Assembly (NCBI GenBank): GCA_013202295.1
Contig: JABMRT010000118.1
Coordinates: 16,109-80,108 of the forward strand
Length of the DNA: 64,000 nucleotides
Source of the DNA: Candidatus Zhuqueibacterota bacterium
GTDB lineage: Bacteria > Zhuqueibacterota > QNDG01 > JABMRT01
Direction: 5' to 3'
The translations under genes and the position numbers were made by a program. Under the pieces are notes generated by a model. That model was not told the origin of the DNA. It ran no database searches and saw only the letters and a list, made by a program, of their open reading frames with translations. Positions within the stretch are counted from its first letter, which is position 1, and each line of letters opens with the position of its first letter. Shown in pieces: positions 4,623 through 52,463 of this stretch.

Positions 4623-4666
4623 GATAGGGTGTCGGAATCCTTCGCATTGATGATTGAAATAATATT

Positions 4667-5230: not shown

Positions 5231-5239
5231 TGAGATAAA

Positions 5240-25961: not shown

Positions 25962-26609
25962 TTGTCCGGGACGTCAAATAGAAAAAGGCAGAATCACTCT
26001 GTCTTTTCTTTTTTGAATGCAAAACGGAAACGATTTTTCTGTTCTGGCGTTTTAAAAGGACATATAAAGGAGCGATCGAAGATTTTCAGGAATATCGGGG
26101 TAATACTTCATATCCTCTTCCTGTTGGGAATTCTTTCAGGGTGGATCTCTCTGGGGTGCCTCAATCCCTTTGCACCCAAGCTAACCGATCAGCTTGAAGT
26201 GGGAGATTTGGTTGTAACACAGCAAAAAACACCTTTGGAGGTATTGCAAAATTTCAAGATTTCGTATATGTTCCAGGATTCTCTTTTATATAGCAATACA
26301 ATAGATACTTCTTTCATCTTTGTTTATCGAGAGGGCACAACCAGCGAATGGGTTTCATGGGGCAGAGAAGAGGATCTTGTGACGACGGGTCGGATGTTCA
26401 GACATTTTAACGTAATTGATCTGGTTTGGAATGAGACCATAGATGAAACCCTCGAAGAAAGTGTGAGTGAAATAAGCAGAGGATTTAATCTAACTTTAAC
26501 CGGTGAACAGTCTGGTTATACGATTTCCGGCCGCGCGGATTTTACATTTCGAAAAGGCAATGATGAAAAATGGAGAATTTCACGATGGAAGGACTGGTCA
26601 GATATTTAA
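25962..26609 (+). CDS. Hypothetical protein (possible lipoprotein; true start probably internal/alternative)
   Basis: Hydrophobic segment 'VILHILFLLGILSGWISLGC' (signal/lipobox-like) followed by a soluble ~150-aa domain. No recognisable family. Confidence 0.35.
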   Translation: MSGTSNRKRQNHSVFSFLNAKRKRFFCSGVLKGHIKERSKIFRNIGVILHILFLLGILSGWISLGCLNPFAPKLTDQLEVGDLVVTQQKTPLEVLQNFKISYMFQDSLLYSNTIDTSFIFVYREGTTSEWVSWGREEDLVTTGRMFRHFNVIDLVWNETIDETLEESVSEISRGFNLTLTGEQSGYTISGRADFTFRKGNDEKWRISRWKDWSDI

Positions 26610-26683
26610 TTTCAAAGGGATTGGATGAATCTTTTTTGTCTAATCAATATAGAACTGTCTTAGCAGAACATAGAGGGTGGATC

Positions 26684-36062: not shown

Positions 36063-36159
36063 TGTTTTCCTTTTAGGAGTTTTTACATTGTGTTATACCT
36101 AAATCCAGGAATCGGTATGTTCAAGTCCTTGTGAAAAGAGGCAATAGCCGATCCGATCT

Positions 36160-36525
36160 TTGGGGAGAAAAAGCATGTATTATTTAATTATCCAACTGTT
36201 CAAAACCGAATATAAAGAGGATCTTCTCCTCGCCTTGACATCATGTGGAATCGAGAAAGGCAGTCTGTTCGAGGGGCAGAATCTGGATAAGCTGCTTCAG
36301 CGGGATTATCCTCTATTCACCGGATTTGTGCGATCTGAAGATGAACGTGAACGGTTCTCAGCGTTGGTCACAGCAGTCGTGGATCGCAAAGAGCGCGTGG
36401 ATGAATTGATCGCTCTGCTCAAAGAAGCGGATATTGACATCCGTAAAGAGGAGATCCTCAGAATTGTGCTTCTGCCCGCCCATCGTATTCTCGACCATGA
36501 AATCGATTGGGAAGGGGAAGCATGA
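36160..36525 (+). CDS. Hypothetical small protein (start probably ATG at 36175, 'MYYLII...')
   Basis: ORF between the antiporter and the UDPGP gene. Its stop overlaps the start of the next gene (ATGA). Confidence 0.35.
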   Translation: MGRKSMYYLIIQLFKTEYKEDLLLALTSCGIEKGSLFEGQNLDKLLQRDYPLFTGFVRSEDERERFSALVTAVVDRKERVDELIALLKEADIDIRKEEILRIVLLPAHRILDHEIDWEGEA

Positions 36526-37955
36526 TTCAGGCGTTGCGACACGAAGATCAAATTCTGATAGAAAAAGTGGTTGAATTTAATCAGGCTCAAATCTTTGATT
36601 GGTGGGCTGAGCTCCCTGACTCCTCAAAGCAAAATCTGCTTGATCAGGTTCGGTTGATTGATTTTAAACAGGTGCAATATTTTCAAGAATTACTTAATAA
36701 TCAGTCCACCCATAATGCGCCGATTCATATGGAGCCGGCGGAGTACATCGCCTTGCCTGAAAACGAATCCTCCGAAGCCGCACGCAAAGAAGCAATGGTA
36801 ATCGGTGAAGATGCTATCCGCAACGGACGTACCGGTGTGTTTACTGTGGCGGGCGGCCAGGGTACACGCCTGGGATTTGACGGGCCGAAGGGGAGCTTTC
36901 CCTGCAGTCCGGTGACAAAGAAAAGTTTATTTGAACTACAGGCCGAGCGAATTCTTGCGATCCAGAAGGCATATGGGGTTATTATTCCCTGGTACCTCAT
37001 GACCAGCCCCACGAATGATGCGGCAACCCGATCTTTCTTTAGCCAGCATCTGTATTTCGGCCTGAATCCCAAAGACGTTCTATTCCCCTGTCAACGCATG
37101 TTGCCAACGCTGGATGATAACGGCAAGCTCATTCTCGATGCCAAAGATCATATCGCTGTGAGCCCGAACGGGCATGGCGGCACCTTTCTCGCCATGCAGG
37201 ATGGTGGTGTGCTGGAGGATGCGGATCGGCGAGGTGTGGATATTCTCTCGTATTACCAGGTGGACAATATCCTTATCCGGGTTATTGATCCTGTGTTTGT
37301 CGGGTTTCATTTAAATATGGGCGCGGGCATGTCTTCTAAAATGATCAAGAAGAATGATCCTCAAGAAAAAGTTGGACACTTCGGCCTGATTGATAATCAC
37401 CTTCATGTGGTTGAATACAGTGACATGACTGAAGCGGATATGGAGGCGAGGAATCCGGACGACAGTTTGAAATATGAGGCGGGCAGTATAGGCATTCATC
37501 TTATCAATACCGGATTCGTCCGCGAACAATTCCGTGACGGATTAAAGTTGCCCTTTCACATTGCCCATAAAAAGATCCCGATTCTTCAGAAGGATGGAAG
37601 GATATCAAATCCAGACATCCCGAACGGATACAAGTTCGAGATGTTTGTGTTTGATGCGCTTGCCGATACCAAAGAATCAGTGATTCTCGAAATCCGGCGC
37701 GAAAAGGAATTCAGTCCGATTAAAAACCGGGAGGAGAGCGATTCCCCGCAAACGGCTAAACAGGATTTAAACAATTATTTCGGCTCCTGGCTTGAGGCTT
37801 CGGGATATACTGTGCCTCGTGACTCCGAAAGCAATGTGCAGTGTGATATCGAGGTTCATCCTCTTTATGCGTGCACACAAGATGAGTTTGTGCAAAAAGT
37901 TCCAAAGCATATGGAACTGACTAAACAGATGGTATTTCATCCCGATTCAGATTAA
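36522..37955 (+). CDS. UDPGP-family (eukaryotic-type UDP-N-acetylglucosamine / UDP-sugar) pyrophosphorylase
   Basis: Nucleotide-binding signature 'VFTVAGGQGTRLGFDGPKGSFP' (UDPGP family 'AGGQGTRLG'). ~480 aa. The start overlaps the upstream stop. Confidence 0.8.
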   Translation: MIQALRHEDQILIEKVVEFNQAQIFDWWAELPDSSKQNLLDQVRLIDFKQVQYFQELLNNQSTHNAPIHMEPAEYIALPENESSEAARKEAMVIGEDAIRNGRTGVFTVAGGQGTRLGFDGPKGSFPCSPVTKKSLFELQAERILAIQKAYGVIIPWYLMTSPTNDAATRSFFSQHLYFGLNPKDVLFPCQRMLPTLDDNGKLILDAKDHIAVSPNGHGGTFLAMQDGGVLEDADRRGVDILSYYQVDNILIRVIDPVFVGFHLNMGAGMSSKMIKKNDPQEKVGHFGLIDNHLHVVEYSDMTEADMEARNPDDSLKYEAGSIGIHLINTGFVREQFRDGLKLPFHIAHKKIPILQKDGRISNPDIPNGYKFEMFVFDALADTKESVILEIRREKEFSPIKNREESDSPQTAKQDLNNYFGSWLEASGYTVPRDSESNVQCDIEVHPLYACTQDEFVQKVPKHMELTKQMVFHPDSD

Positions 37956-37974
37956 AACAGCGGATGGAGGCGTT

Positions 37975-39072
37975 ATGATAGAGACTATTAAAATGTATCT
38001 TGAATATGAGTGGGTATTGAACGGTTTGAAATCCCTTGCCCTTTTGGCGCTCTTTGGCCTTTTGGTGTTGATTATCCGCAAGGTGTTGAACCGGGTTCCT
38101 CTTGAAAAGCCGCGCAGGATGTTGGTGAAACGATGGATCACGCGGGTGTTATGGATTATTTACGGGATTGTGTTGGTGCGAATCTGGGCTGTTTCAGATC
38201 TGTTCGCCATTTTTAGGAAGCCGTATATTCAAAAAATTCTCCATTCTCTTATCGCATTCGCCATTGTCTATATTGCACTGTTCTTTACAACCCAATTTAT
38301 CAATCAACTCAAGATCGAAATTGCGGCACGCCATCAGTATCGCAAGCGCGCCGGATACATTGCTACCTTCATATACATTCTGGCGCTCATTCCTATCTGG
38401 GCCGAAACGAGCAACCAATGGGTGACAGTATTCTCGGTGATGGGTGCCGGTATTGCTTTAGCACTTCATGAGATGCTGCTCAATATTGCGGGATGGTTCT
38501 ATATTGTGATTCGTCATCCGTATCGAACCGGAGACCGGATTGAATTGGGATCGCTTCGCGGTGATGTGATCGACATCCGGCTTTTTCAAACGACTCTGCT
38601 TGAACTGGGCAACTGGGTGGATGGTGATCAAAGCACAGGCCGGGTGGTTCATATGCCGCACGGTCAAATTTTCCGAAATCCTTTATTCAATTACACACAA
38701 GGCTTTGAATTTCTCTGGAACGAACTGCCCGTGCTTCTCACATTTGAAAGTGATTGGGAGAAAGCAAAATCCATCCTTTTAAAATTTGGAGAAGAAGCCA
38801 GTAAAGACGTTCAGGAGCAGGTCAAGCTAAGAATTGACCGGATGTCGCGTGAGTATCTTATCTATTATAAAAATTTCACACCTATTGTATATACGAAAAT
38901 TGAAGAAAGCGGCGTCAAGATCACGCTGCGGTATCTGACTGAAGCGAGGAAAAGGCGTAGCGGTGAAAATACTATCAGCCAGAAAGTCCTCCAGGCCATC
39001 AACCTTGAACCTAACATAGATTTTGCTTACCCAACCTATCGTATTTATAAACGCGGTGAGGATGGATCGTAA
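37975..39072 (+). CDS. Mechanosensitive ion channel, MscS family
   Basis: N-terminal TM helices followed by the MscS beta-domain 'GDRIELGSLRGDVIDIRLFQTTLLELGNWVDG...VHMPHGQIF'. Confidence 0.75.
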   Translation: MIETIKMYLEYEWVLNGLKSLALLALFGLLVLIIRKVLNRVPLEKPRRMLVKRWITRVLWIIYGIVLVRIWAVSDLFAIFRKPYIQKILHSLIAFAIVYIALFFTTQFINQLKIEIAARHQYRKRAGYIATFIYILALIPIWAETSNQWVTVFSVMGAGIALALHEMLLNIAGWFYIVIRHPYRTGDRIELGSLRGDVIDIRLFQTTLLELGNWVDGDQSTGRVVHMPHGQIFRNPLFNYTQGFEFLWNELPVLLTFESDWEKAKSILLKFGEEASKDVQEQVKLRIDRMSREYLIYYKNFTPIVYTKIEESGVKITLRYLTEARKRRSGENTISQKVLQAINLEPNIDFAYPTYRIYKRGEDGS

Positions 39073-39118
39073 ATTGTAATCCCATCAGAATCCGATTTAC
39101 GGCCCAACCGTATTTATT

Positions 39119-42100
39119 ATGGCAGAGAAAAAGACACGCAAATCCGCAAAAAGATCTCCAGGAAGGTTCCGGAGACGGTTTCTCTGGAGTATCGGTATCC
39201 TCTTGTCGCTCATCCTATTGTTCAACCTTTTAATTCGTTTGTTCTTTCCCGAGCACAAGATTCGTGCACTCTTGGCCGATCAGATTTATCAAGCCACGGG
39301 CCGCCCATTTGAAGTCGACCGAATTTCATGGAGCTTGCTCGGTGCTCTGGATTTGGAAGGCGTACGCCTGGGATTTACCGAGGCAGAAGGCAAACCGGAT
39401 GCATATCTCGTCCAAATGGAGCGAGGGCGGCTTCGTTTTAGGCTGTTGCCGCTCCTAAAGAAGCAGCTCCAGGTTTCAGATATTCTCCTTGATACTCCGC
39501 AGATCCATTTGATTCCTGCAGTTCTTGCAAGTCAGGACACACTTTCTGGCGTGTCCTCTAACACTCCAAAATCGAAAGTCTCAGAGATTGATACCAGTTC
39601 CTTTAAAAAAGAATCCTTGCCGATCTCGATGGGACTGTCGAAATTTAATCTGAAGGATTTCCGTCTTCGTATCTCCTTTCCAGATTCCATACAACTGAAA
39701 GAAATTGAACTGACAGGATTAAATGTCAATGTACAGGATCTTTATGTGCCAACTGATATTCTCAAAAATCAGGATCGGCTTCGTGGGCAAGTGCGTGTTT
39801 TTACAGAGGACGCCCGATTATTCATAAAAGCGACTGATTTAACTGCTGAGTGGACTCCGAATTTCGATATTCAGGCGGTCTGGGCGAAAGAAGCGCGATG
39901 GCGTGTCCGGGGCGGAATCCATTTACTGCCCAGGGATAATCCCGCCGACAGTTTATTTATGGATCTGGATATAGAGGGTCGAGGTTTGGGTCAGGAAACG
40001 CGTATGCGGCATCTGGCAATCGGGCTTGGCCCGTGGCGGCCCATTCTAATGACCGGCACAGTCCAAATAGTCGATGAGGAACCCATCTATGATATGCAAC
40101 TCGGCGGTGATGAAGTGGATTTATCCGCGATCACTGCTTTTCTCCAACGCACCCTTCCCTCACCTTTTAGTGATCCACTTAATGATCTTGAATTGTCAGG
40201 TAAAATGTCCCTCTTAAACGGCCAGGTTCACGGTAAGGGGCTGGATGTTCATGCGAAAATCCTATCCCGGCTCGACCAAGCCCGACTTGCTATCCCTAAG
40301 CAATCCATATCAGTGGGCCCAGTAAACTATGAATTTGAGATCGACGGGGAATGGAATCCAAAGGGTTTGAAAAAGGCACATATACTCGGGAGCATGGAGA
40401 TTGAGCAAGTATCCGCACCGTTGAGTGATACTTCCGATGTCTCTGTGCGTGACATTCGAATTTTCCTTGATACAAATCTGGATTCCCTCTTTTATCCCGC
40501 TCAGGGTCAAATCAAGGTCAATGTGGGCAATCTCTATCAGAGCCGGATGAACCTCGGATTGAACTGGGATGCAAAGGATTTGCCATCCCTAAAGGATTTT
40601 CGGTTGGACGGAGAACTTCGCCTTGATTCCCTGTTCGTGGAAAACCTGCCCATTCCCGATCTGCCGGTTGTGGGGCAGGTGGGAGCCGGTCTTACTATTC
40701 GAGCCACGGGCATGGATTCCATTCTTATTGAATTGACGGGCAATACGAGTGATGGTCAGATGCTTACAGATTTCGGCAGGGACAATGTACCTGATTACAA
40801 TTGGATGGCCAAGATCCATGCCCAAGTGGCAGAGGATTTTTCTGAGCTCACTGTACCGTCTGCACGTTTTCGTATAGGCGAGCTGTTCTCCCTGGATGCC
40901 AATGCCCGTTTCCTTCCGGAAACCCGGCAATTCCAGGCGGAAGTCACGGACGCCCATTTTCATAATGAAAAAATCCAAAATTATTTGCCAGAACAAATTC
41001 ATGCAGAGTTGGCTCATTTGAGGTTGGGAGGAGAGGAGACATTCCAAGGCATTGTGACGGGTCAGCTCACGGATTCAATCCCGATGTATAAACTGTCCGC
41101 CGAAGTCGGTGTAAGCAGTGGGAGTATGCAGGACACACTGTCCGGCATTTCAGTCCAGGACATTGAGGCTGAAATTAAGACTTCGGGAGATCAGGATCGC
41201 ATTGAGGGCACAGGTTCCATCAAGGTTGGAGAATTTATTCTCGCTTCACAGGGGCCCGATCCCATTCGGAATGGTCACATCCAATTCGACTGGGGCGTGC
41301 AGAATCCCGATAGCCTGTGGATCGACGCGGGTCAATTTTTGATCGACAGCCTGGGTGTGCAATCGCAATTCGACGCCACTGTGCATCCGAGTGATTCGAT
41401 TCCTTTAATCAGCAGCCGCATCCGACTGGGAGTATCTTCTCACAATTGGAAAAATATCGTTCAGGGCATTCAATTTAAAGGAGGCTTAAACGGAGAGATC
41501 CAAGCTTCCAACGACCTGCTTGATCGTAACAAAATCCTCCTTGAGGGCCATATCGCATTTGATTCGCTGTCAATCAATCAGGGTGAATTGATTCAGATTG
41601 TGGATGTTCAAGGCCGGATTCCCCTGCGCTTTCATGCCAGTCTGGATGGCCGGCTCATTCCGGAAGCTCATTATGAGCCGGTCAGCTGGATTGAATATGA
41701 AGAGCGGCAGGATTTAATCCGAACACTTTGGTCAGGTGATAAGCGGTTGCAGATTCAGTCTATCAAGATCAATGACTATGCCATCAATCACATCCGGATG
41801 GATACGGATTTCAGTCATGGCATGATTCAAATTCCTTCCTTTCAGATGGAGGTTTTTGAGGGCAATATCGGAGGCTCGCTCTGGTTCGATCCGGCGGATG
41901 GTCGGCTGGAGATGATGCGGTATGGTATTCGCGCGCAAGCCTCACGCATCAATTCCGCAGCTCTCACGGAGAATCAGAAATCAAAGGAGAATACGGAACT
42001 CAACGCCAACCTGGCTTTTAACGGGCAGGGTCTGGATATTGAAAAAGGATTGGACTTTGATGGATATTTTCATATTACACAGGTGGGGCCCAAATTTGCG

Positions 42101-42343
42101 AGCACCTTACTGAAAGGAATGGATCCCAAGGGTTCGGACCGCTCGATCCGTTTGACACGACGCCTGCTGGATATGGGATGGAAACCCAAACTGTTCAGTT
42201 TTGAGCTGAGACACGGTCACGTGTATCCATCGCTGTCGCTTTCTCAGCCGTGGTTTTCACCCATTCGAATTCCTGGCAGGCTGGAATACGGGCGCATCCC
42301 GTTCGCGTTTTTTCTTTCGAATCAATTAACAGCACCACAATAG
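39119..42343 (+). CDS. AsmA/TamB/YdbH-like large inner-membrane-anchored periplasmic protein
   Basis: N-terminal basic stretch plus TM anchor ('RRRFLWSIGILLSLILLFNLLI'). ~1050-aa periplasmic beta-rich region, with size and topology like the AsmA family. No catalytic motifs. Confidence 0.5.
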   Translation: MAEKKTRKSAKRSPGRFRRRFLWSIGILLSLILLFNLLIRLFFPEHKIRALLADQIYQATGRPFEVDRISWSLLGALDLEGVRLGFTEAEGKPDAYLVQMERGRLRFRLLPLLKKQLQVSDILLDTPQIHLIPAVLASQDTLSGVSSNTPKSKVSEIDTSSFKKESLPISMGLSKFNLKDFRLRISFPDSIQLKEIELTGLNVNVQDLYVPTDILKNQDRLRGQVRVFTEDARLFIKATDLTAEWTPNFDIQAVWAKEARWRVRGGIHLLPRDNPADSLFMDLDIEGRGLGQETRMRHLAIGLGPWRPILMTGTVQIVDEEPIYDMQLGGDEVDLSAITAFLQRTLPSPFSDPLNDLELSGKMSLLNGQVHGKGLDVHAKILSRLDQARLAIPKQSISVGPVNYEFEIDGEWNPKGLKKAHILGSMEIEQVSAPLSDTSDVSVRDIRIFLDTNLDSLFYPAQGQIKVNVGNLYQSRMNLGLNWDAKDLPSLKDFRLDGELRLDSLFVENLPIPDLPVVGQVGAGLTIRATGMDSILIELTGNTSDGQMLTDFGRDNVPDYNWMAKIHAQVAEDFSELTVPSARFRIGELFSLDANARFLPETRQFQAEVTDAHFHNEKIQNYLPEQIHAELAHLRLGGEETFQGIVTGQLTDSIPMYKLSAEVGVSSGSMQDTLSGISVQDIEAEIKTSGDQDRIEGTGSIKVGEFILASQGPDPIRNGHIQFDWGVQNPDSLWIDAGQFLIDSLGVQSQFDATVHPSDSIPLISSRIRLGVSSHNWKNIVQGIQFKGGLNGEIQASNDLLDRNKILLEGHIAFDSLSINQGELIQIVDVQGRIPLRFHASLDGRLIPEAHYEPVSWIEYEERQDLIRTLWSGDKRLQIQSIKINDYAINHIRMDTDFSHGMIQIPSFQMEVFEGNIGGSLWFDPADGRLEMMRYGIRAQASRINSAALTENQKSKENTELNANLAFNGQGLDIEKGLDFDGYFHITQVGPKFASTLLKGMDPKGSDRSIRLTRRLLDMGWKPKLFSFELRHGHVYPSLSLSQPWFSPIRIPGRLEYGRIPFAFFLSNQLTAPQ

Positions 42344-42358
42344 AAGGAGGATTAAATC

Positions 42359-42922
42359 ATGAAAAAGTGGATTGTCGTTCTAGGGATCATGATCCTTGCC
42401 GGTTTGATCGTTTCATGCAGTATCAAACCCCCTGAAGTTCGGGTCACCGGCGAGATGACTGCGCTTGAAAACGAAGTACTGGGAACGTATCGTGAGATTG
42501 AGCAGGACACATGGATGGTGGCTTCCACCCGGTCTTCAGGGACTGGAAAAGGACAGACGCTCTCACCAGAGAAGAAACTTGTGCTTGACGCCAAACGGCG
42601 GCAGAAATTCAATCAGGATGATGTCATGGAAATGAAGACCGCCAAATTGATTGGTGAAAACAATCAGGGATTTCTTGAGGTGGTTGACAATGAGAAGCTT
42701 CAGGTCGATTCCGAAAAAGAGGAGTTTGTGACCATTTTGGTCACGGAAGAGAATGAAGACCGTGAAGTCATTGTGGATCGGGTGATTGAACTGAATGAAA
42801 ACCTGAAGGATGCTGTGCGTGAAAACATACTTGCGATCTTTGCTGAGATGAATCAAAAAAATTCGCCGATTGGCTCCTGGATTCAGGATCATATTGGCAA
42901 ATGGATACTGAAAGCAGAATGA
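42359..42922 (+). CDS. Lipoprotein of unknown function
   Basis: GGAGG RBS. Signal peptide with lipobox 'LIVSC'. A Glu/Lys-rich soluble domain. It overlaps the start of the downstream giant gene by 22 nt. Confidence 0.55.
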   Translation: MKKWIVVLGIMILAGLIVSCSIKPPEVRVTGEMTALENEVLGTYREIEQDTWMVASTRSSGTGKGQTLSPEKKLVLDAKRRQKFNQDDVMEMKTAKLIGENNQGFLEVVDNEKLQVDSEKEEFVTILVTEENEDREVIVDRVIELNENLKDAVRENILAIFAEMNQKNSPIGSWIQDHIGKWILKAE

Positions 42923-45900
42923 AACGTTTTCTCCACAGCACTCTTTTTATCCTGATCGTTCTGGCCGCTACATGGCTGTCAGCGGGGGATGAACTGCCCG
43001 ATATAAAGCAGATGACTACCCATCCCGGGCAGGATTTCGATCCGGCCATCTCTCCGGATGGCAAATGGATGGCATTTTGTTCGGATCGCTTAGGCAATCT
43101 GGATATTTGGATCAAACCTGTTCCGCGCGGCACTGCGGTCCAGGTTACCTTGCATCAGGCAGATGACGCAGAACCCGTTTGGATGCCGGACAGCAAAGGA
43201 TTGATTTTCGTGTCTAAACGGCGCGATGCAGAGGGCGATCTCTGGTCAATCCAAATTAACGATAAGGGGGGTACGCCTAAAGGCAAGCCGAAGCAGCTTA
43301 CGGACTGGCTGGGATATGACGGTGATCCCTCGGTTTCACCGGACGGCAGGCAAGTGGTCTTCAGCTCCAGACGAAGTGGTCAATCCGAACTTTGGATTCT
43401 TGATCTGCGCTCGAAACGAACCACCCGTTTGACTTTATGGGGAGGGTCACATCCAGCCTGGTCCCCAATTGATAATCGCATTGTTTATACGCATATCGAA
43501 TCGGATGAGGGCGCCTCCCTTTATCTTCTTCGGGCGGATGGTTCCGAACAACTCGACTCGCCCGCTATCCCGCTTACTGCGGGTCAATTTGTAGATATAG
43601 AGCCGGCCTGGTCCGCGGATGGACAATCCATCATTTTTCAGCGCTATCCCTACATCACCAAATCCAATCTTAACAATGCTTTGATGTTTAGAAGCGCGCT
43701 CTGGAAGAAAGAAGTGCCATCCCACATAGACAACACCGATCAGGAAACGTTAACATCCTCACTCGAAATTCAGATTACCGGCGTGCTGTATCATGATCAA
43801 TCGCCGAATTGCTCCTCTGCGGGGATGCTGACTTTCACCTCTTCCCGAAGCGGCAGTCTGGATATTTGGTCCATGCCGGATTGCGGTCTCTTTCCTAAAA
43901 TGGAATCAGCGAGAGAGCAGTACAGCAAAGTGATGGACCGGTTCAGCACGGTTATTACCCCGGAAGCCCTGCATCAAGCCATTCTTGGATATGGATGCGT
44001 GCTAAATTATTTCCCCTCCGATTTAATGATGGGCGCACGTTCATTAATTCGAATTGCAGATCTGTACCAACTCCTCGAAGACAACAACCAAGCGCGAGTA
44101 GCACTCCACCACATTCTGGATTCCTATTCTGATCAGCATCGCGAAGCGGCGCAGGCCCTGTTGAAACTGGCGTCCCTGAAGGACACACCCCTTGATGAGC
44201 GCATCGCGCAGTGTCATGAGATTCTGATGATGTATCCTGATCAGGAACAGGCTTTGGCCGAAATGCATGTTCTGTTGGGTGATTTGTACCTCGAGTCGGG
44301 CCGGATCGGGGAAAGTCTAAATACCTACAGCCAGGTGACTCAACCTCCGACACGTGTCAACTGGCGCGCGCAGGCCCATCTGAGAATTGGGGACTTGTTT
44401 CAGAAAACCGATCAAAAAGAAACCGCGCGAACCAGTTACTATACCGTGCTCCGGGAATTTGGGCATATTCCCATCTGGAGGCAAAGAGCCATTGACAGAT
44501 TGCTGGGTCAGGTTGAGGGCTCCGCACGACGATCCACCATCGCATATCAACGTATTATCCAGGCCGCTGTTGAGTTTCCGCCGCTCGTAGCCCAGGCGCA
44601 GCTGGCTCTTTGTCACATTCTCGTTGAAGAAGGCCAGTACGAAAGGGCATTGCGTGAGCTGGAGGAGATGGCATACCTGGTTCCTTCAGAGCAGTGGGCG
44701 CAAGCTGAAGCCAGAATCCTTGAAGCTGAAGTCTACAGTTTGATGGATGATGATCTTAAAGGGATCCTGCGTCTTGAAGGGGCAATCCAGGAATATGAAA
44801 CCCTGGAAGGCGGGATTTATGCGATGAAGGTCCGCGACACCTTGTTCCGGATTCTTTTCGAATCGGCTGAATCCCTGCGCTTGAATCAAGACTATGATCT
44901 CGCCGGTGCGAGATATCGCAAAGCATTGACCCTCCGATCCAAAGATGTGGCCTGCCATCGCGGACTCATCGAATGCATGTCCCGCACAGGTCGTATCCAT
45001 GGACAGATTCAATTTTATGAGGAAAATATCCAGGTTGAACCGGAAGATCCGGTACTGCTTTACGGTCTGGGTCTGGCATACTCCTATGCCGGTGAACGGA
45101 ACATCGATGATCTTGAGCAATCCAATTATTTTCTAATGCGTGCCCTCTCGGAAGACTATCGCATGATTTATCCTTATCGGGCACTGAGTTTCAATTATGA
45201 GCTAATGGAAAGGTTGACCGTCGAAGCCACGCAAAAGAAACCAGGCTTTTTTAAAGCTTTAGGCAACCGGGTCGTTTCACCCTTTAAATGGGTGGCAGAG
45301 AAACTGCCGTTCGGCGAGCAAGAAATCAAGGTCGGATATTATGAGAAAGCCATCGAAGTACTGATTACCGCACTCGAGCTGAATGATGAATCACAGGATC
45401 CGCGCATGGAGGCGTTGCTGGCCCAGAATCTGGCGAACAATTATTATAATCTCGGCGAATTCGGATTTCAGAAAGCATTTCAATATTATCAAACCCGCCT
45501 TGAACTGGATTCGGTTTTTTCCAATCCCCTGGAGAAAGCGGTCTTTCATGAACGGGCCGGACATTGCGGTGCAGTCACTGGTGCAGGCGAACGCGCCGAG
45601 TACTTCCTGACGACTGCGATTCAGATCCATCAGGATCTGGGACGGTTTCGTGATGTGTATCGGAACGAAAAAATGCTGGCATTTCATTATCAACTGAATG
45701 GCCAGTATGAAGATGCGGTCATTCTTTATGATAAGCTGGCAGATGTGGATGATCGCGAGGGGCGATGGGATGAGCTTGAGCGGGACTATCGGAACAGTGC
45801 ATATAATTTTTATCTGATGGGTGAACCCGAGGATGCGATTGAATATGCAAAACGCGCAGAGCGAATCCTCCAGACTCAAAAAATGCCAAAAGGGCCGCCG

Positions 45901-48900
45901 GAGAAGAGTTATCTGCGCGTCGGGATTTTAGGATTTTCGATTCCCGTTTGGGGAATGGAGGAGATTGGTGGGGCCTCTTCAGGCGGATTCACTCTGGCTG
46001 AAGAAGCGGCTTTTGTGTACAATCTGTTAAGCCGATGCCATGAGCAGATCGGTGATTATGATCAGGCTCTTCATTATGAACGAAAACGGCGCGACATTTT
46101 CTTTTCCAGAAAAGACCGACTGGGTGAACGGATCAGTCAATCCCGTCTGGGGAGTCTGTATTTTCAGAAAGGTTATTATGAAACAGCTTGGATTCGTTTC
46201 GGAGACGCGCGGATTCTGTGCATAAAAAAGGAGGATTCTGACGGCCGATGGACCAACGTGGTTAATCTCGCGCACACTGCGGTTGTGATGATGGCCAATG
46301 AGAACCGGGATGCACATCTGGACCCCGCCCTGGAAATACTGGCAAAGGAAGAGGACTTGTTGACAGAAGAACAGGCTTCTCCGGATCGCCATCTTGCAGT
46401 GCAGAGTCTCATGGGCACACTCCTGTTTCTTAAGACAAAATCCATCTCAGCAAGTTCAGACACTCTGGAAAAAACGATTTCTCAAACCTTGCAGCGAATA
46501 GCTTTCGCAGAGGAGGCGATGTCTTATTTCCAACTCGCCCTTATTCTTGCTCGGGAAATCGGAGATTGGAAGCAGGAAAGTACATTACTTAAGAATCTAT
46601 CCGAGGTCAGCCTGATCGTCGGGGATCGCCTTACCGCCTATGATTATCTTCGAAGAAGCGTACGGCTCCTTGAGAAGAATGGAGAGGAATCCCTGCTTTG
46701 GCGTCTCAAATACAGCCTGGCCAATCAACTTCTCACACTTTCTGAAGCAGATCGAGCGCTTCTCAATGAAAAACGCACCCCTTCCAAGTTATACCGTGAA
46801 GCCATTTCTGATCTTGAATCTCTGCCCGTTATGGAAGAGGCAGGGCAAGGTCAACTTTCGGATCGGACAGATCGGATGCATCTTTACGAAGATGGGGCCA
46901 TTGAATACCTCCGGCTTGGCCAGATTGAAGGAGCGTTGACCCTGATTGAAAAGGGCAAGCAAAAATCCCTGGCAGATATTTTGGCCAGGCGGCCGCCCAA
47001 GCTTCGACGTGAACGGCATAAAATCGTCTGGGGCAATCTTCGATACGTGAGAACCCGTATTCATGAAATCCGAAAACAGATTCTGGAAGAGCGTTCTGAT
47101 AAAAATCGGCCATCCATTCTTCAAACCGCACGTGCGGATCTAAGGCGCTATCAAAATGAATATGCAGAGATACTCCAGGACATTCAGACCGAAGATGAGG
47201 TGCTCGCCTATCTCTCCGGCGCGTATCCTGTAAATATTAAAGCTGCACGCAATCATCTCGATGAGGATTCAGGCATACTCTATTATTCAGCTCTGGGTGA
47301 AACCATCCACCTCTTTGCCCTGGACAAGGACACAGTTATCACGCGGAAACTCAAGTTTTCGCGATCCGAACTGGTGAACTTGAAGCGGGGATTTCTCCGA
47401 GCCATTGAAAGCGACAGTCTCACGGATTTGTTCAGTCAATATCTCTATCCCGGATTGATCCAGCCGGTTGAGTACTTCATAGAAAGTAAATCAAATTTGA
47501 TTATTGTGCAGGACAATCCGACACGGCAAATACCTTTCTGCGCGCTCTCGGATGCAGAGGGGCCGATGCTTGATCGCTGGACGATTTCCTACGCGCCCAG
47601 TCTGACTGCATACACACTCGCGGCTTCCCGCCGAAGGATTTCCCAGAATCGAAGTGGTGTATTCGGACTTGCATCCTATTCGGAATCCAAAAATCCCGAG
47701 GCATTCAGTCAAGAGAGTATCCCGTTCCCTCACAGTTTTAAAGATGAACTGGACACGCTGGATCAGGTCTATCTGGGCGGCCGGTTTGAGATGAATGTAG
47801 CTGACCCCATCCATTCCATATTTCAATTGAAGGGTGAAGCGGGTGATTCTACACTGCAACTTCAAAACCTTTTTTCGATGGATATCGCATCCAGTCTGCT
47901 GTTCTTTTTCCATTCTGATTCCAGCAGGGTTGGAGACAATTTTGCCCCGGATCTCTGGTGCCTTTCACTGCTCTATGCCGGTGTGCCGACCTGCGGATTT
48001 TCATGGTGGCCCCCATCTCAGGATGCTTTCCGACCATTTTTTGAAGCCTTTCATGCAGCGATCCAAACCGAATCTTACGCGGATGCTCTGGCCGAAGCAC
48101 AGGTTTCACTGATGCATCAGGGCCGTCCCATGCGGGATTGGGCCGGTATTCAACTCTCCGGATTCGAGGGCATGCGACTGGAGAATCGTATCCAATTTGC
48201 CAAAGAAAATCTGGTGGCCACTGTCATTAAGGGACGCGCTTTTGCGGAGCGCAGTGAATATCCCGATGCGGTAATGAGCCTGGAAGAAGCGCTGGGTATG
48301 GCCCGGGCATTGGATGACAACCGTTCAGGGAATCTTCTTGAAACGGAAATCATCGCCACAAGCATGCAGGGCGGCTTGTGGGACAAAGCCATTGTCTATC
48401 AGAGTCGTCACCTTGATCAGGCCATCCAAACCGAAGATCGGGATGGAGAGTTGCAGGCAAGAAACAACCTGTCCGTCTTCTATTTACGAAATGGAAATCC
48501 GGATGAGGCCGTACAGATGAAGCAAGTTGTCCTGGATTTGATTAAGGAGAGCGGAAGCGCTGAGGCGCAAGTAAAAGCCAGTGAGGAAATGGCGTTTCTT
48601 TTCTCTCAAAGCGGGCAATGCAATCAGGCGGCCGTGTGGGCAGACACTCTGCTTCAGCTCCATCAAACCGTTCATGACAGTGCGGGTATGGCCCATGCGC
48701 TTCTCCTCCTGGGCAGATTTCAGCTTGAAGGCGAACGCTACTGGTCGGCCCGTGATGTGCTTCTTCAAGCGATTTCAATATTTGAAACACAGATCCAACC
48801 GAACCGGAATATCCTTACAAATATCGCTATAGAACATGCTTCGGCCTATCAGCTTCTTGGGTTGGTCAATGAAAAGCTGGTACGTTACGAAGAAGCGATT

Positions 48901-51114
48901 GATTGCCAGATTACAGCCTTGCAAAAATTTCAGGGGCTCAGACAAAATCCTCAAATTGCGCTGGCAAGACAATATCTGGCGAACCTCTACTGGGAAATGG
49001 GAGATTACCGAAGGGCCATTCAATTTCAGCGGGAAGCGCTTTCCGCGTTTGAAAAACAGAAAGATCAGAAATTGCTTGCTATGGCGCACAGTACGCTCGG
49101 GCTGATTCAAATGAGTTTGGGCGATCTGGTGACTGCGCGTGGGTCTGAACTTAATGCGTATCAACTTGCAGAGTCCTCTGGCAGTCTTGCTGATCAGGCT
49201 ACGATTCTAAAGAATATGGGGCTGATTGCAATCCAAAGTGGTGAGAACCAGCAGGCATACAATCACTTGATGCAGGCGGCACGTATTGACAGTACTGCGG
49301 GATTGCAGCGTGGCCTGGCCTATGATTACCGTAATCTGGGGCAGCTGCTTCTACGAATGGATCGCATTCAGGAGGCAGAGCTATTCCTGCAAAAAGGCCT
49401 TGAACTTTCAAGTCTGGCGGATGACAAGCGCAATATGGTTCAATGCCATCTAGCATTTGGCGAGCTATTCCTGCTTGCCCATGATTACAATCGTGCCATG
49501 ACACATCTGGATCAAGCGATGTTTCATGCCAAAGGATTGGTGCTTCCTGAAATTGTGTGGCGCATCCATCGCAAACGGGCTGCTGCCTGGATTGGGCGTC
49601 AGGATTATAATAAGGCACTGATTGATTATGAAGAGGCGGTCAGGATCGTCGAAGCATTGCGCGCCGAGTTGAAAGTAGATGCTCTGAAGCAGGGATTCAT
49701 TGACAATAAGATGGACCTTTACGTGGATATGGTTGAGCATTTGGTACGTATGGGCCGGACTGAGGACGCCTTTCATTTTGTGGAGCGAGCCAAATCCAGG
49801 AGTTTTATTGACATGCTGGGCAATCAGGATGTCGTCCTTCCGAAAGCTGAAGGAGAACTGCTCGAACGCGAGAAAGATGCGCGAAATCGAATCCAGGAGC
49901 TTCAAGGAAAAGCAGCCAGTCTGACGGAGAGAGAACAATTGACTGCGGGCGAACAATCCGAACTGGATCGGCTCAATCTGGAACTCATCCAGGCCCGGCA
50001 GTCTTATCAGGAAGCGCTGGTTGAAATCCAGCAAACCAATCCTGAACTGGTGGGTTTTGTGAGTGTGGATCCAATTCAGGCAAGCGCACTCCAGCAACAA
50101 TTACCAGACAGCACGGCCATCCTTGAATATTATCTGACATCCGGGCGGCTTTATATCTGGATGATTCGCCGGGAGGGTGTTCAGATACGGCGGTCGGTCG
50201 TAAGCGTTCAACAACTCGAAAGTTTGGTTAAATCATTGCGTGAGGGAATCGAATCGCATCTCTCCATATTCTCCGAGACCCGCGCGCTTTATGATCTGCT
50301 CATCCTGCCCTTTGAGGTGGAAATGGCCGCAGTTCGCCACGTGGTGATTGTGCCGCACGGCATATTGCATTATCTGCCATTTGCGACACTCCAAGATGAG
50401 AGCGGCAGGGTTCTGATTGATCGTGTATCGCTTTCGCTTTCGCCGAGCGCCACGGTTTTGGGTTATTGCCTTGAAAAGGGTGAAACGCAACGCCGAAAGG
50501 TTCGAGACATTTCTGTCCTGGCACTGGGCAATCCCAATTTAGGCAGCCCCAGATTTGATCTGCCGTTTGCCGAGAAAGAGGTCGTGAGCCTTGAGCGGGC
50601 CTTTGATGAGGTGTCTGTGTATTTTCACGATGAGGCCACTGAGAAAAATGCGAAAGACCATGCTTCTGAACATGAAATATTGCATTTTGCATGTCATGCG
50701 ACCTATGAGCCGGAGTCCCCGCTCTTTTCCGCTTTGCTTCTGAAGGCCGGCGGGCAGTTTGAGGATGGCCGGTTGGAGGCCCATGAAATTTTCGGCCTGG
50801 ATCTGGACTGTGATCTGGTCGCGCTTAGCGCTTGCGAAACCGGTCTCGCGCAGATCACGCAAGGCGATGAAATTATCGGATTGGCGAGAAGTTTTATTTT
50901 CGCGGGCGCATCTTCCATCATTACCAGCCTGTGGAAAGTTGATGATTTAGCTACTGCTGTAATGGTCAAGAGGTTCTACCGATATCTTTCGGCTGGATAT
51001 TCCAAAGCAGAGGCTCTGAGAAAGGCACAGCTTGTAGTGAAGAATTCTGTGAACAGCCATCCCTCAGCATGGGCGGCGTTCGGATTGACCGGAGATTTTA
51101 AAGCGCTCCATTAG
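42901..51114 (+). CDS. Giant (2737 aa) secreted protein: N-terminal TolB-like PD40 beta-propeller, very long TPR array, C-terminal CHAT (caspase-like) protease domain
   Basis: Signal peptide 'FILIVLAATWLSAG'. PD40 repeats ('SPDGKWMAFCSDRLGNLDIWI', 'MPDSKGLIFVSKR', 'SPDGRQVVFSSRRSGQSELWI', 'SADGQSIIFQR'). More than 40 TPR-like units across aa ~340-2400. The C-terminal CHAT carries the catalytic dyad contexts 'ILHFACHATYE' (His) and 'LVALSACETGLAQ' (Cys), and ends '...HPSAWAAFGLTGD'. Confidence 0.8.
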   Translation: MDTESRMKRFLHSTLFILIVLAATWLSAGDELPDIKQMTTHPGQDFDPAISPDGKWMAFCSDRLGNLDIWIKPVPRGTAVQVTLHQADDAEPVWMPDSKGLIFVSKRRDAEGDLWSIQINDKGGTPKGKPKQLTDWLGYDGDPSVSPDGRQVVFSSRRSGQSELWILDLRSKRTTRLTLWGGSHPAWSPIDNRIVYTHIESDEGASLYLLRADGSEQLDSPAIPLTAGQFVDIEPAWSADGQSIIFQRYPYITKSNLNNALMFRSALWKKEVPSHIDNTDQETLTSSLEIQITGVLYHDQSPNCSSAGMLTFTSSRSGSLDIWSMPDCGLFPKMESAREQYSKVMDRFSTVITPEALHQAILGYGCVLNYFPSDLMMGARSLIRIADLYQLLEDNNQARVALHHILDSYSDQHREAAQALLKLASLKDTPLDERIAQCHEILMMYPDQEQALAEMHVLLGDLYLESGRIGESLNTYSQVTQPPTRVNWRAQAHLRIGDLFQKTDQKETARTSYYTVLREFGHIPIWRQRAIDRLLGQVEGSARRSTIAYQRIIQAAVEFPPLVAQAQLALCHILVEEGQYERALRELEEMAYLVPSEQWAQAEARILEAEVYSLMDDDLKGILRLEGAIQEYETLEGGIYAMKVRDTLFRILFESAESLRLNQDYDLAGARYRKALTLRSKDVACHRGLIECMSRTGRIHGQIQFYEENIQVEPEDPVLLYGLGLAYSYAGERNIDDLEQSNYFLMRALSEDYRMIYPYRALSFNYELMERLTVEATQKKPGFFKALGNRVVSPFKWVAEKLPFGEQEIKVGYYEKAIEVLITALELNDESQDPRMEALLAQNLANNYYNLGEFGFQKAFQYYQTRLELDSVFSNPLEKAVFHERAGHCGAVTGAGERAEYFLTTAIQIHQDLGRFRDVYRNEKMLAFHYQLNGQYEDAVILYDKLADVDDREGRWDELERDYRNSAYNFYLMGEPEDAIEYAKRAERILQTQKMPKGPPEKSYLRVGILGFSIPVWGMEEIGGASSGGFTLAEEAAFVYNLLSRCHEQIGDYDQALHYERKRRDIFFSRKDRLGERISQSRLGSLYFQKGYYETAWIRFGDARILCIKKEDSDGRWTNVVNLAHTAVVMMANENRDAHLDPALEILAKEEDLLTEEQASPDRHLAVQSLMGTLLFLKTKSISASSDTLEKTISQTLQRIAFAEEAMSYFQLALILAREIGDWKQESTLLKNLSEVSLIVGDRLTAYDYLRRSVRLLEKNGEESLLWRLKYSLANQLLTLSEADRALLNEKRTPSKLYREAISDLESLPVMEEAGQGQLSDRTDRMHLYEDGAIEYLRLGQIEGALTLIEKGKQKSLADILARRPPKLRRERHKIVWGNLRYVRTRIHEIRKQILEERSDKNRPSILQTARADLRRYQNEYAEILQDIQTEDEVLAYLSGAYPVNIKAARNHLDEDSGILYYSALGETIHLFALDKDTVITRKLKFSRSELVNLKRGFLRAIESDSLTDLFSQYLYPGLIQPVEYFIESKSNLIIVQDNPTRQIPFCALSDAEGPMLDRWTISYAPSLTAYTLAASRRRISQNRSGVFGLASYSESKNPEAFSQESIPFPHSFKDELDTLDQVYLGGRFEMNVADPIHSIFQLKGEAGDSTLQLQNLFSMDIASSLLFFFHSDSSRVGDNFAPDLWCLSLLYAGVPTCGFSWWPPSQDAFRPFFEAFHAAIQTESYADALAEAQVSLMHQGRPMRDWAGIQLSGFEGMRLENRIQFAKENLVATVIKGRAFAERSEYPDAVMSLEEALGMARALDDNRSGNLLETEIIATSMQGGLWDKAIVYQSRHLDQAIQTEDRDGELQARNNLSVFYLRNGNPDEAVQMKQVVLDLIKESGSAEAQVKASEEMAFLFSQSGQCNQAAVWADTLLQLHQTVHDSAGMAHALLLLGRFQLEGERYWSARDVLLQAISIFETQIQPNRNILTNIAIEHASAYQLLGLVNEKLVRYEEAIDCQITALQKFQGLRQNPQIALARQYLANLYWEMGDYRRAIQFQREALSAFEKQKDQKLLAMAHSTLGLIQMSLGDLVTARGSELNAYQLAESSGSLADQATILKNMGLIAIQSGENQQAYNHLMQAARIDSTAGLQRGLAYDYRNLGQLLLRMDRIQEAELFLQKGLELSSLADDKRNMVQCHLAFGELFLLAHDYNRAMTHLDQAMFHAKGLVLPEIVWRIHRKRAAAWIGRQDYNKALIDYEEAVRIVEALRAELKVDALKQGFIDNKMDLYVDMVEHLVRMGRTEDAFHFVERAKSRSFIDMLGNQDVVLPKAEGELLEREKDARNRIQELQGKAASLTEREQLTAGEQSELDRLNLELIQARQSYQEALVEIQQTNPELVGFVSVDPIQASALQQQLPDSTAILEYYLTSGRLYIWMIRREGVQIRRSVVSVQQLESLVKSLREGIESHLSIFSETRALYDLLILPFEVEMAAVRHVVIVPHGILHYLPFATLQDESGRVLIDRVSLSLSPSATVLGYCLEKGETQRRKVRDISVLALGNPNLGSPRFDLPFAEKEVVSLERAFDEVSVYFHDEATEKNAKDHASEHEILHFACHATYEPESPLFSALLLKAGGQFEDGRLEAHEIFGLDLDCDLVALSACETGLAQITQGDEIIGLARSFIFAGASSIITSLWKVDDLATAVMVKRFYRYLSAGYSKAEALRKAQLVVKNSVNSHPSAWAAFGLTGDFKALH

Positions 51115-51175
51115 CAACCATGTACATTGATTTATTGATCTATCCATTATTAATAACATCGGACCGGGAAAGAAC

Positions 51176-51976
51176 ATGACAATGGATCACATACTAAATA
51201 CAGCGATTGAAGCTGCACGTAAAGGCGGCCGCATCCTTTGTGACGGATTCGGCACATTACAGTCGAGCCAGGTTTCGCTCAAAGGGGCTGGCGATTATGT
51301 AACGGATTGCGATCACGCATCCGAAAAAGCAATAATCGCGCTTCTCCGTGATAACTTTCCTGACCATACGATACATGCTGAAGAATCCGGATCGGACCTT
51401 ATAAAGTCCAATTCAGAATGGTTTATTGATCCGCTTGACGGCACGGCTAATTTTGTGCAGGGCATTCCGGTATTTGCTGTTTCCCTGGCATGGGTTCAGG
51501 ACGGACAGATCCAGATCGGCGTGGTTTATGACCCCATGCGCGATGAATTGTTTCACGCGATGAAGGGACAGGGTGCATGGCTGAATGGTCAACTAATTCA
51601 CGTTTCCGGGAAGACTGATCTTTCCACAGCCATGCTGGCTACTGGATTTCCGTGGCGGTCCAAATCCTATTTGGATGATTATTTAGAATCCTTCAAGGTC
51701 TTGTTTCAAGCGGTGGCCGGAATGAGACGACTGGGCACCGCAGCTTTGGATTTGGCATATACAGCTTGCGGCCGGTTTGACGGATTCTGGGAGATGAAGC
51801 TGAAACCCTGGGATATTGGTGCCGGAATCATCATGGTTCAGGAAGCGGGCGGCATCGTTTCAGATTTTTCGGGCGACGCGGGTTTCTTTGAATCCGGTAA
51901 TATGGTGGCCGGGTCTCCGGCAATTCACGCAAAAATGAGTGAGATCACCCGGAAGATACTTTCTCGCATCAAATAA
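51176..51976 (+). CDS. suhB: Inositol monophosphatase family protein (SuhB-like)
   Basis: Motifs '[12 protein letters not shown]' and 'WDIGAG' typical of IMPase/SuhB. 266 aa. Confidence 0.85.
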
Positions 51977-51998
51977 AATTAGATGGAGGGCGCTAGCC

Positions 51999-52412
51999 AT
52001 GAAATTTTTCACGGATTATCACTGGTTCCACACAGAGAAGAAACGGGAGCTAATCAATATCACAGACAAGGTGCATGACGCGGTGGTTCAATGCGGCATA
52101 AAGGAAGGCATGGTGCTGGTATCCGCCATGCATATCACGGCAGGGGTGTTTGTGAATGACCATGAATCCGGATTGTGGCAGGATATTGATGACTGGGTCG
52201 AATCGGTGGCTCCTTTTAATCCCGATTATCGCCATCATCGTACGGGCGAGACCAATGGAGATGCGCATTTGAAAAGTCTGCTTGTGCATCATCAGGTGAT
52301 TGTCCCAGTGACTGAAGGCAAGCTGGATCTCGGTCCCTGGCAGCAGGTTTTCTATGCTGAATTTGATGGGATGCGGCGAAAGCGGTTGTTGATCAAGGTG
52401 ATGGGGGAGTGA
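51999..52412 (+). CDS. yjbQ: YjbQ/UPF0047 family protein (secondary thiamine-phosphate synthase-like)
   Basis: Start ATG at 51999 preceded by GGAGGG. Conserved '[15 protein letters not shown]' and '[26 protein letters not shown]'. Confidence 0.85.
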
Positions 52413-52463
52413 AGAGCGTTTTTGAATGATGATTTTGACGGTTTTTCACCACACGAGGTTTAA

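Follow-up and report, generated by a model that had tools for sequence, protein, structure and literature searches.

Gene layout of the locus

Within a 64,000-nucleotide (nt) stretch of a Candidatus Zhuqueibacterota genome (contig JABMRT010000118.1 of assembly GCA_013202295.1, positions 16,109 to 80,108; hereafter the window, whose own numbering is used for its coordinates), three co-directional genes encode an AsmA-family protein, a lipoprotein and a giant exported protein. The first (39119..42343) specifies 1,074 amino acids (aa), with a predicted membrane anchor at the N-terminus and a long periplasmic stretch after it; the second (42359..42922) specifies a 187-aa product with a lipobox, a conserved N-terminal extension and a C-terminal YdbL/DUF1318 domain; and the third (42901..51114) specifies 2,737 aa, counted from its first ATG. 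All three genes, and all features described within them below, lie on the + strand, in the positions and orientation given by a first-pass annotation that had been made from the sequence alone and that had suggested a role, still speculative, in envelope surveillance, ligand capture and proteolysis. Our analysis points to a unit that is conserved across phyla and that, on balance, probably forms a periplasmic module resembling the YdbH-YnbE-YdbL intermembrane bridge of Escherichia coli.

The three genes are closely packed. A spacer of 15 nt, by direct reading of the sequence, separates the AsmA-like gene from the lipoprotein gene (an earlier count had given 16 bp), and within it lies a Shine-Dalgarno sequence, AAGGAGG (42344..42350), positioned 8 nt 5' of the lipoprotein ATG. 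The lipoprotein and giant genes overlap by 22 nt, as first annotated, if the giant is taken from its first ATG; an alternative ATG at 42919 replaces this with a 4-nt overlap, ATGA, at the lipoprotein stop codon. A start of the latter type was picked by gene callers on two independent contigs (L002 and L004), and ATG 42919 is likely the true start of the giant. Overlapping stop and start codons of this kind imply co-translation.

An interrupted giant reading frame had been named in the first-pass annotation as a finding that would refute its proposal, and we looked for interruptions in independent assemblies. The same genes, at 98-100% identity, occur in assemblies from three Joint Genome Institute (JGI) metagenome samples. 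One of these (L001) holds the whole giant of 2,737 aa, and in the other two its frame stays uninterrupted as far as the contig reaches. Because independent assemblies carry the frame uninterrupted, the 8.2-kb open reading frame (ORF) is not an assembly artefact. A promoter and terminator scan of positions 36000-53000 returned counts close to the shuffled expectation, and Rfam and tRNA scans of the 64-kb window returned no matches.

The second gene encodes a lipid-anchored protein with a YdbL domain

The identification of the second product as a lipoprotein stands: its lipobox (IVSC) contains a cysteine, Cys20, that is invariant among 17 homologs. Overlooked at first was the domain that follows, which is what ties the protein concretely to AsmA-like lipid bridges. 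This YdbL-like DUF1318 domain (42617..42913, aa 87-185) is recognized by Pfam (PF07027 over the same residues, at 34.6 bits where the cutoff is 27), by profile alignment with E. coli YdbL (hhalign, E 8e-6), and by structure. The AlphaFold2 (AF2) model of the lipoprotein, with a mean predicted local distance difference test score (pLDDT) of 85, has a single significant Foldseek match in the PDB, namely E. coli YdbL in a crystal structure from 2026 (28oj), at a target-normalised TM-score of 0.79 and a root-mean-square deviation of 2.5 Å. The YdbL fold comprises two beta-hairpins plus a helical core. A sequence search of solved structures with the lipoprotein profile found nothing.

Similarity extends to the residues through which YdbL meets its partner. 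In E. coli, E60 and R61 of YdbL contact the helix of YnbE (PMC13464000); the YdbL stretch N58-A-E60-R61 aligns with N132-E-D134-R135 of the window lipoprotein, and N132 and R135 are invariant among the 17 lipoprotein homologs.

Between the lipobox and this domain lies an N-terminal extension (42419..42616, aa 21-86) that is the best-conserved part of the lipoprotein, with the consensus CSIKAPEVRVTGEMTALExEVLGTYRxxEEDTWMVASTRS. Its 'IKPPEVRVTGE' segment is disordered in the model (aa 21-29 are unstructured, with pLDDT <50) and gives way to two long helices, the first long and acidic (aa 31-59) and the second spanning aa 70-94. Residues 1-94 have no Pfam match at E<=1. The N-terminal half of the lipoprotein and YnbE are alike in layout, each having an anchor, a short segment without structure when alone, and a helix; this is a resemblance rather than demonstrated homology. 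Homology of this half to YnbE was considered and rejected at the level of sequence (hhalign probability 1.1%, with the lipobox alone aligning, and no Pfam match), as was a separate small YnbE-like gene, for which the 15-nt spacer leaves no room.

The lipoprotein differs from E. coli YdbL, a soluble periplasmic protein of ~90 aa, and belongs to a distinct long, lipid-anchored subfamily. When its profile was compared with 1.84 billion representative proteins, 404 clusters at 50% identity matched at E<=1e-10; among the best 150 of these, nearly all are 180-230 aa long and matched over their full length. The long lipid-anchored form of YdbL is thus a sizeable family.

At the edge of this family, two Leptospirales/Turneriellaceae proteins (L051 10001-10339 and L052 10001-10318) match aa 1-106 of the lipoprotein only. 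These partial homologs adjoin tRNA synthetase genes, with no giant near, and from their matches the N-terminal extension may exist as a separate module. Convergent ORFs of ~1,000-1,150 aa beside Leptospirales/Spirochaetes lipoprotein homologs were considered as AsmA-like candidates and turned out to be tRNA synthetases and a ribonucleotide reductase; on one Spirochaetes contig, the ribonucleotide reductase gene beside the lipoprotein homolog (L048 6625-10065, - strand) is split by a LAGLIDADG-endonuclease intein.

The giant combines a propeller with two TPR-CHAT units, one of them catalytically dead

The third gene product had been described as an exported chain of a PD40 propeller, tetratricopeptide repeats (TPR) and a C-terminal CHAT domain. 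Each of these parts is recovered by Pfam or by comparison of orthologs, and to them must be added a second, internal CHAT-like domain that had been missed, giving a layout of propeller + (TPR-pseudoCHAT) + (TPR-CHAT). Orthologs of the giant measure 2,648-2,950 aa; shorter forms of 1,801-2,121 aa also exist.

The signal peptide (42919..42987, aa 7-29, MKRFLHSTLFILIVLAATWLSAG) has a counterpart in every ortholog: all 33 begin with a hydrophobic, signal-peptide-like N-terminus that the propeller follows directly, and in three of the 33 a lipobox takes the place of the plain signal peptide. No further hydrophobic or transmembrane (TM) segment was seen past the N-terminus of the orthologs, and the giant has no type IX secretion tail. 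From these features taken together, the plain reading is that the giant is exported and is periplasmic or membrane-associated.

The PD40 (TolB/tricorn-type) beta-propeller (42988..43920, ~aa 30-340) is matched by Pfam at E 2e-36 in one scan and at E 4e-42, with 4 repeats scored, in another; the NCBIfam TolB propeller model matches at E 9e-29, below its cutoff. It is followed by a first TPR array of ~1,150 aa (43921..47367, ~aa 341-1489), which matches multiple TPR families and includes a YbgF/CpoB-like match below cutoff at aa 439-522. The second TPR array (48301..49830, aa 1801-2310) comprises ~12 hairpins, identified from an AF2 model and from matches to TPR_12 and related families. In this model of aa 1801-2737 (pLDDT 87.7, predicted TM-score 0.80), residues 7-507 of the fragment fold as helical TPR hairpins, and long helices at ~aa 2311-2400 lead on to the C-terminal domain. 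The more than 40 TPR units of the first-pass annotation are plausible, with ~12 hairpins in the model and a further ~1,150 aa of TPR-like sequence.

The C-terminal CHAT domain (50206..51102, aa 2436-2734) matches PF12770 over aa 2461-2732 with E 5.4e-79 and 266 bits (E 1.5e-64 in the fragment scan). Its catalytic His2599 (codon 50695..50697) lies in 'HFACHATYE', a motif that starts at aa 2595, and its catalytic Cys2645 (codon 50833..50835) in 'LSACETG', which starts at aa 2642. That these contexts are intact had been noted from the window sequence, and the alignment agrees: among orthologs from genomic loci, His2599 is kept in 23/24 and Cys2645 in 24/24, and 30 of 31 database homologs, Desulfobacterota and Nitrospinales included, retain both residues. 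The domain is accordingly of the active type by sequence, its dyad intact, and is a predicted protease.

When the model of aa 1801-2737 was compared with the PDB, the best match was Csx29 (8eey_B, E 4e-16), followed by DdvA (E 1e-14) and separase (E 2e-14). Matches to this TPR2-CHAT2 unit ranged overall from E 1e-13 to 4e-16 and had low global TM-scores of 0.25-0.5, as expected from flexible TPR solenoids. A search of PDB sequences with the sequence of the same unit returned generic TPR proteins only.

The internal CHAT-like domain (47368..48180, ~aa 1490-1760; Pfam CHAT E 5.6e-16 on the fragment) recurs in almost every full-length ortholog. Wherever the domain aligns, the ortholog is without both the catalytic His and the catalytic Cys, and a domain without both dyad residues is a pseudo-protease. 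It appears to be part of a duplicated TPR-CHAT module.

The AsmA-family protein has a conserved C-terminal module

The assignment of the first gene product to the AsmA family is borne out by a Pfam match above cutoff (PF05170, aa 26-244, E 1.3e-17, 64.3 bits against 29.8), accompanied by a weak match to DUF748; its orthologs match AsmA, DUF748 and, weakly, YhdP. Reading of the translation places a single hydrophobic helix, the putative inner-membrane anchor, at aa 20-42 (39176..39244, RFLWSIGILLSLILLFNLLIRLF), preceded by a basic N-terminus. A single N-terminal anchor is the usual topology of AsmA-like proteins (PMC11126948), and the window protein is predicted to have one N-terminal TM anchor with the remainder in the periplasm.

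Beyond the N-terminus, a weak colinear AsmA match was found at aa 868-972 (E 0.009). The strongest conservation is at the C-terminus, where a module of aa 900-1074 (41816..42340) constitutes a candidate partner-docking end. In an alignment of 27 orthologs, per-column conservation in these last ~175 residues is 0.54-0.71, compared with ~0.35 elsewhere, and this module is the sole part of the protein that can be aligned with Desulfobacterota orthologs. Such a conserved terminus suggests a dedicated partner.

Orthology of the AsmA-like protein to YdbH was considered and rejected (BLASTP E 0.15; hhalign of the 27-sequence profile, probability 1.4%; no YdbH-type Pfam match), and a sequence search of solved structures with the protein found nothing.

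The three genes are associated in distant lineages

To follow the locus in other genomes, lipoprotein homologs were traced on contigs, keeping one genome per species, which gave 43 species-level genomes with titles such as candidate division KSB1, Calditrichota/Caldithrix, LCP-89 and 'Cytophagia'; synteny was then scored on non-redundant loci by tblastn with the window proteins. The giant lies directly 3' of the lipoprotein in 39 of the 44 lipoprotein-seeded loci with downstream sequence. Of the 31 giant-bearing loci whose upstream sequence extends to 3.5 kb or more, 23 have the AsmA-like gene upstream. Conservation thus links the lipoprotein most tightly to the giant, more so than it links the AsmA-like protein to the giant. 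Upstream synteny (UDPGP-MscS) is also conserved in the related KSB1/Calditrichota-type metagenome-assembled genomes (MAGs) from which most loci come, and the downstream flanks vary, with inositol monophosphatase, M3 peptidase, ComEC and other genes in this position.

A search seeded with the giant identified the complete trio in Humidesulfovibrio and relatives (Desulfovibrionales; L054, L056 and L058), with 4-nt overlaps at both junctions. Here the AsmA-like position is occupied by proteins of 1,243-1,265 aa that have the C-terminal module in common with the window AsmA-like protein, followed by a DUF1318 lipoprotein of 194-197 aa, which is a full-length homolog of the window lipoprotein (hhalign 99.8%), and a giant of 2,864-2,950 aa. 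On a Desulfobulbaceae contig (L057), an AsmA/DUF748 gene lies 1.3 kb upstream of the lipoprotein-giant pair. Occurrence of the trio across phyla, with overlapping or tight gene junctions, argues that the three genes constitute one operon-like unit, as had been proposed from the window alone.

Several of these loci contain additional genes. In L057, a ParE/PhdYeFM toxin-antitoxin pair and a small ORF (4278-5241, - strand) are inserted between the AsmA-like gene and the pair. In two of the Desulfovibrionales loci, a protein with SH3 and Peptidase_M48 domains is encoded directly after the trio on the same strand (L054 16606-17856, L056 16861-18123) and is a possible fourth component in this order; an unannotated 462-aa gene takes its position in L058.

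A proposed envelope module and its comparison with known systems

In E. coli, the AsmA-like protein YdbH and the lipoprotein YnbE form an intermembrane bridge, and their genes share an operon with ydbL (PMC11126948). YdbL binds the C-terminal helix of YnbE and controls assembly of the bridge, and free YdbL is broken down by DegP, a protease of the periplasm (PMC11126948, PMC13464000). The window locus shares with this system its co-directional and tightly coupled genes, an inner-membrane AsmA-family protein, a lipoprotein, the DUF1318/YdbL fold with a conserved N-x-[DE]-R pocket motif, and an AsmA-like C-terminus that is the conserved and presumably partner-binding end; the control of E. coli YdbL levels by a periplasmic protease is alike in theme. 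Unlike the E. coli system, the window locus encodes an AsmA-like protein that is not detectably a YdbH ortholog and has no separate YnbE gene, its YdbL domain is lipid-anchored and carries a conserved N-terminal extension of ~65 aa, and its third gene, for a 2,737-aa PD40-TPR-CHAT protein, has no E. coli counterpart.

From this comparison, we consider it somewhat probable that the three genes specify one periplasmic envelope module akin to YdbH-YnbE-YdbL, with the giant as scaffold and regulatory protease. The AsmA-family protein, anchored in the inner membrane, would span the periplasm in the manner of AsmA-like lipid-bridge proteins and would offer its C-terminal ~175 residues as the docking end for a partner. 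The lipoprotein, lipid-anchored at Cys20, would serve as the adaptor at the outer, distal end and would regulate assembly of the bridge, uniting in one chain the roles that YnbE and YdbL play toward YdbH. The giant, a Sec-exported protein whose translation is coupled to that of the lipoprotein, would use its TolB-like propeller and first TPR array to bind the lipoprotein and the end of the bridge. Its TPR2-CHAT2 unit would cut either a part of the module or an envelope client recruited to it, a cleavage that would tie bridge assembly and lipid flow to proteolysis. We infer which proteins touch, what is cleaved and what the module does in the cell from the composition, dyad conservation, export signals and synteny observed above.

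The pseudo-CHAT domain probably supports the active CHAT domain in a structural or regulatory capacity and may pair with it, as in separase. Separase likewise joins a helical-repeat scaffold to a caspase-like domain and has a pseudo-protease beside the active domain. It is, however, a eukaryotic protein of the cytoplasm and nucleus that has no sequence-level similarity to the giant, and the pseudo-domain of the giant is ~650 aa of TPR away from its active CHAT.

Several observations weigh against such a module. The proteins have no sequence similarity to YdbH or YnbE, and the analogy consists of the YdbL domain and the topology. No giant lies near 5 of the 44 lipoprotein homologs, and a Nitrospinales giant occurs alone. 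Synteny of all three genes, which the first-pass annotation had looked to for support, holds across phyla but is not universal: 8 of 31 loci, L030, L040-42 and L050 among them, have FolD, patatin or ApbE upstream in place of the AsmA-like gene. Finally, three complete orthologs of the giant, of 1,801-1,815 aa (L043, L044 and L046), stop at the pseudo-CHAT domain and are without TPR2-CHAT2, and a 2,121-aa ortholog (L007) has a trace of CHAT at its C-terminus below threshold only. These short giants all lie directly behind the lipoprotein gene, and the L043, L044 and L046 forms also lie behind the AsmA-like gene. Because short giants without an active CHAT domain keep this pairing, proteolysis is not a universal core activity of the system, and the CHAT protease, earlier cast as the effector, is not an invariant one.

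Alternative explanations

Part of this evidence would fit a smaller functional unit, made up of the lipoprotein and the giant alone. Tethered to the outer membrane, the two would form an adaptor/protease or scaffold complex with other substrates in the envelope, for instance cell-wall enzymes, and the AsmA-like gene would be a frequent but functionally separate neighbor. The pair is found in 39/44 loci against 23/31 for the AsmA-like gene, distant lineages hold the pair beside unrelated housekeeping genes, some giants are lipoproteins themselves, and periplasmic complexes of a TPR lipoprotein and a protease do exist (PMC12569750). The TolB-like propeller and YbgF-like TPR matches point the same way, and there are likenesses to known systems: Tol-Pal has a periplasmic PD40 propeller encoded beside a lipoprotein, and NlpI-Prc and LbcA-CtpA combine a TPR scaffold with a periplasmic protease. 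These likenesses have limits. The TolB model TIGR02800 reaches 100.7 bits against a cutoff of 343, on propeller blades only, and YbgF falls far below its cutoff; no tolQRA or pal genes are near the trio; the window lipoprotein is YdbL-like and is neither an OmpA-like Pal nor a TPR-type NlpI; and the window protease is of the CHAT cysteine type, not an S41 serine protease. More directly against an independent pair, the lipoprotein carries a YdbL domain, of which the sole known role is in an AsmA-like bridge (PMC11126948, PMC13464000); two unrelated groups of phylum rank retain the AsmA-like gene next to the pair, with 4-nt overlaps and in spite of the toxin-antitoxin insertion; and the conserved C-terminus of the AsmA-like protein suggests a dedicated partner. 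We regard the pair acting without the AsmA-like protein as unlikely, although it is the alternative that best withstands the evidence.

The resemblance of TPR2-CHAT2 to Csx29 raises the question of defense. CHAT proteases are common defense effectors, and in an anti-phage or programmed-cell-death system a TPR sensor would activate the CHAT effector, as in Craspase, the gasdermin-activating CHAT proteases or Avs-like systems. Csx29, of the type III-E Craspase, shares with the giant a TPR array fused to a His-Cys CHAT domain and is the best fold match; the NCBIfam Csx29 model also matches, sub-threshold (E 4e-14; 52 bits against a cutoff of 300). Whereas Csx29 is a cytoplasmic, RNA-activated protein of ~700 aa bound to Cas7-11, the giant is exported. 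The first-pass annotation had set aside a Craspase-type system on the grounds that no defense genes are nearby, and the signal peptide and two negative scans agree with it: PADLOC returned a generic TPR match only on the trio and nothing on ten neighbors, and a tandem-repeat scan of the 64-kb window found no repeats or arrays. The locus has no cas genes, no Csx30/31, and no Cas7-11, gasdermin or NTPase partner. The surrounding genes (LAM-EIIA-Na/H exchanger-UDPGP-MscS) form a housekeeping neighborhood that is syntenic across many genomes, which indicates vertical inheritance and not a defense island. A defense function is, on these grounds, very improbable.

DdvA of Myxococcus xanthus, a transmembrane anti-sigma factor with a periplasmic TPR-CHAT region (PMC11506125; PDB 8rw5/8rot), is the second-best structural match and offers another precedent, in which the giant would be a periplasmic signaling device whose signal-induced TPR-CHAT autoproteolysis relays information on the envelope to gene expression. 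Both proteins place a separase/Craspase-type TPR-CHAT unit in the periplasm, and the tandem active and inactive CHAT domains of the giant could pair like the DdvA dimer. DdvA nonetheless spans the membrane, has a cytoplasmic zinc domain and controls a CBASS/CRISPR island. The giant, by contrast, is soluble or exported, has neither a TM segment beyond its signal peptide nor an anti-sigma domain in the cytoplasm, and consists of a propeller, two TPR arrays, a pseudo-CHAT and an active CHAT domain. It also lacks a sigma-factor partner, no extracytoplasmic function (ECF) sigma factor or RseP-type gene being conserved nearby, and the active site that is incomplete in DdvA is represented by a dyad in the full-length CHAT domain here. 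We give little credence to such a role.

Adjacency inherited within one lineage, with no functional connection, is highly improbable: most loci do come from related KSB1/Calditrichota-type MAGs in which UDPGP-MscS is conserved upstream as well, but the Desulfobacterota trio with its wholly different flanks largely refutes it, the trio is kept in FCB loci while their downstream flanks vary, and the stop and start codons overlap.

Implications of a possible protease-linked bridge

Envelope biology has yet to settle how AsmA-like bridges find their outer-membrane partners and how they are controlled, and to our knowledge the only such bridges that are understood are TamB-TamA and YdbH-YnbE-YdbL. 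To these, the locus adds a partner set for an AsmA-family protein that is conserved across phyla, a long, lipid-anchored form of YdbL represented by hundreds of sequence clusters, and a naturally occurring tandem of one dead and one live TPR-CHAT unit. It also provides the first genomic link found here between an AsmA-like bridge and a periplasmic caspase-like protease.

If the bridge-like module exists, a more specific and more doubtful possibility is that the CHAT protease is an integral, stoichiometric partner of the AsmA-like lipid bridge, joined to it by the YdbL-type adaptor and acting as a built-in checkpoint that matches outer-membrane lipid supply to envelope state; we advance this tentatively. 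Overproduced AsmA-family bridges lower the activity of LbcA-CtpA, a periplasmic complex of a TPR lipoprotein and a protease (PMC12569750). Were a stoichiometric partnership true, the module would be a hard-wired version of the crosstalk seen in proteobacteria between DegP and YdbL and between AsmA bridges and LbcA-CtpA. A functional link would also supply a model, open to direct testing, of how proteolysis controls the transport of lipids between membranes and would extend the roles of bacterial CHAT proteases past defense and cell differentiation. The organisms concerned are uncultured, save possibly for the Desulfovibrionales relatives.

In the full-text literature, with subscription journals outside coverage, we found no link of CHAT to PD40 propellers or DUF1318 and no outer-membrane TPR-CHAT protein, which is absence of evidence only. 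The two papers that mention both 'AsmA' and 'CHAT domain' were DdvA studies, and for DUF1318 the search returned only an unrelated microbiome paper.

Other genes in the window

Almost all large ORFs between positions 447 and 60619, a span of ~60 kb, are on the + strand, and GC content ranges from 0.39 to 0.51 between segments of the window. All of the following genes are on the + strand. A second giant ORF of 2,328 aa (8160-15146) has as its sole Pfam match a sub-threshold FlgD_ig-like C-terminus, a feature by which it may be a large protein exported through type IX secretion. An unusual 1,198-aa fusion (17185-20781) combines HATPase_c_2 (anti-sigma-kinase-like), HAMP, SpoIIE/PP2C phosphatase, helix-turn-helix and TPR domains. 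A 1,092-aa protein (26570-29848) joins a Peptidase_MA_2 metalloprotease to PD40 propellers and is the second propeller-protease fusion in the window. Downstream of the trio, type IX secretion C-terminal sorting domains, which point to an organism of the FCB group, are carried by both a GH18 chitinase (52464-53858) and an 887-aa protein (54469-57132).

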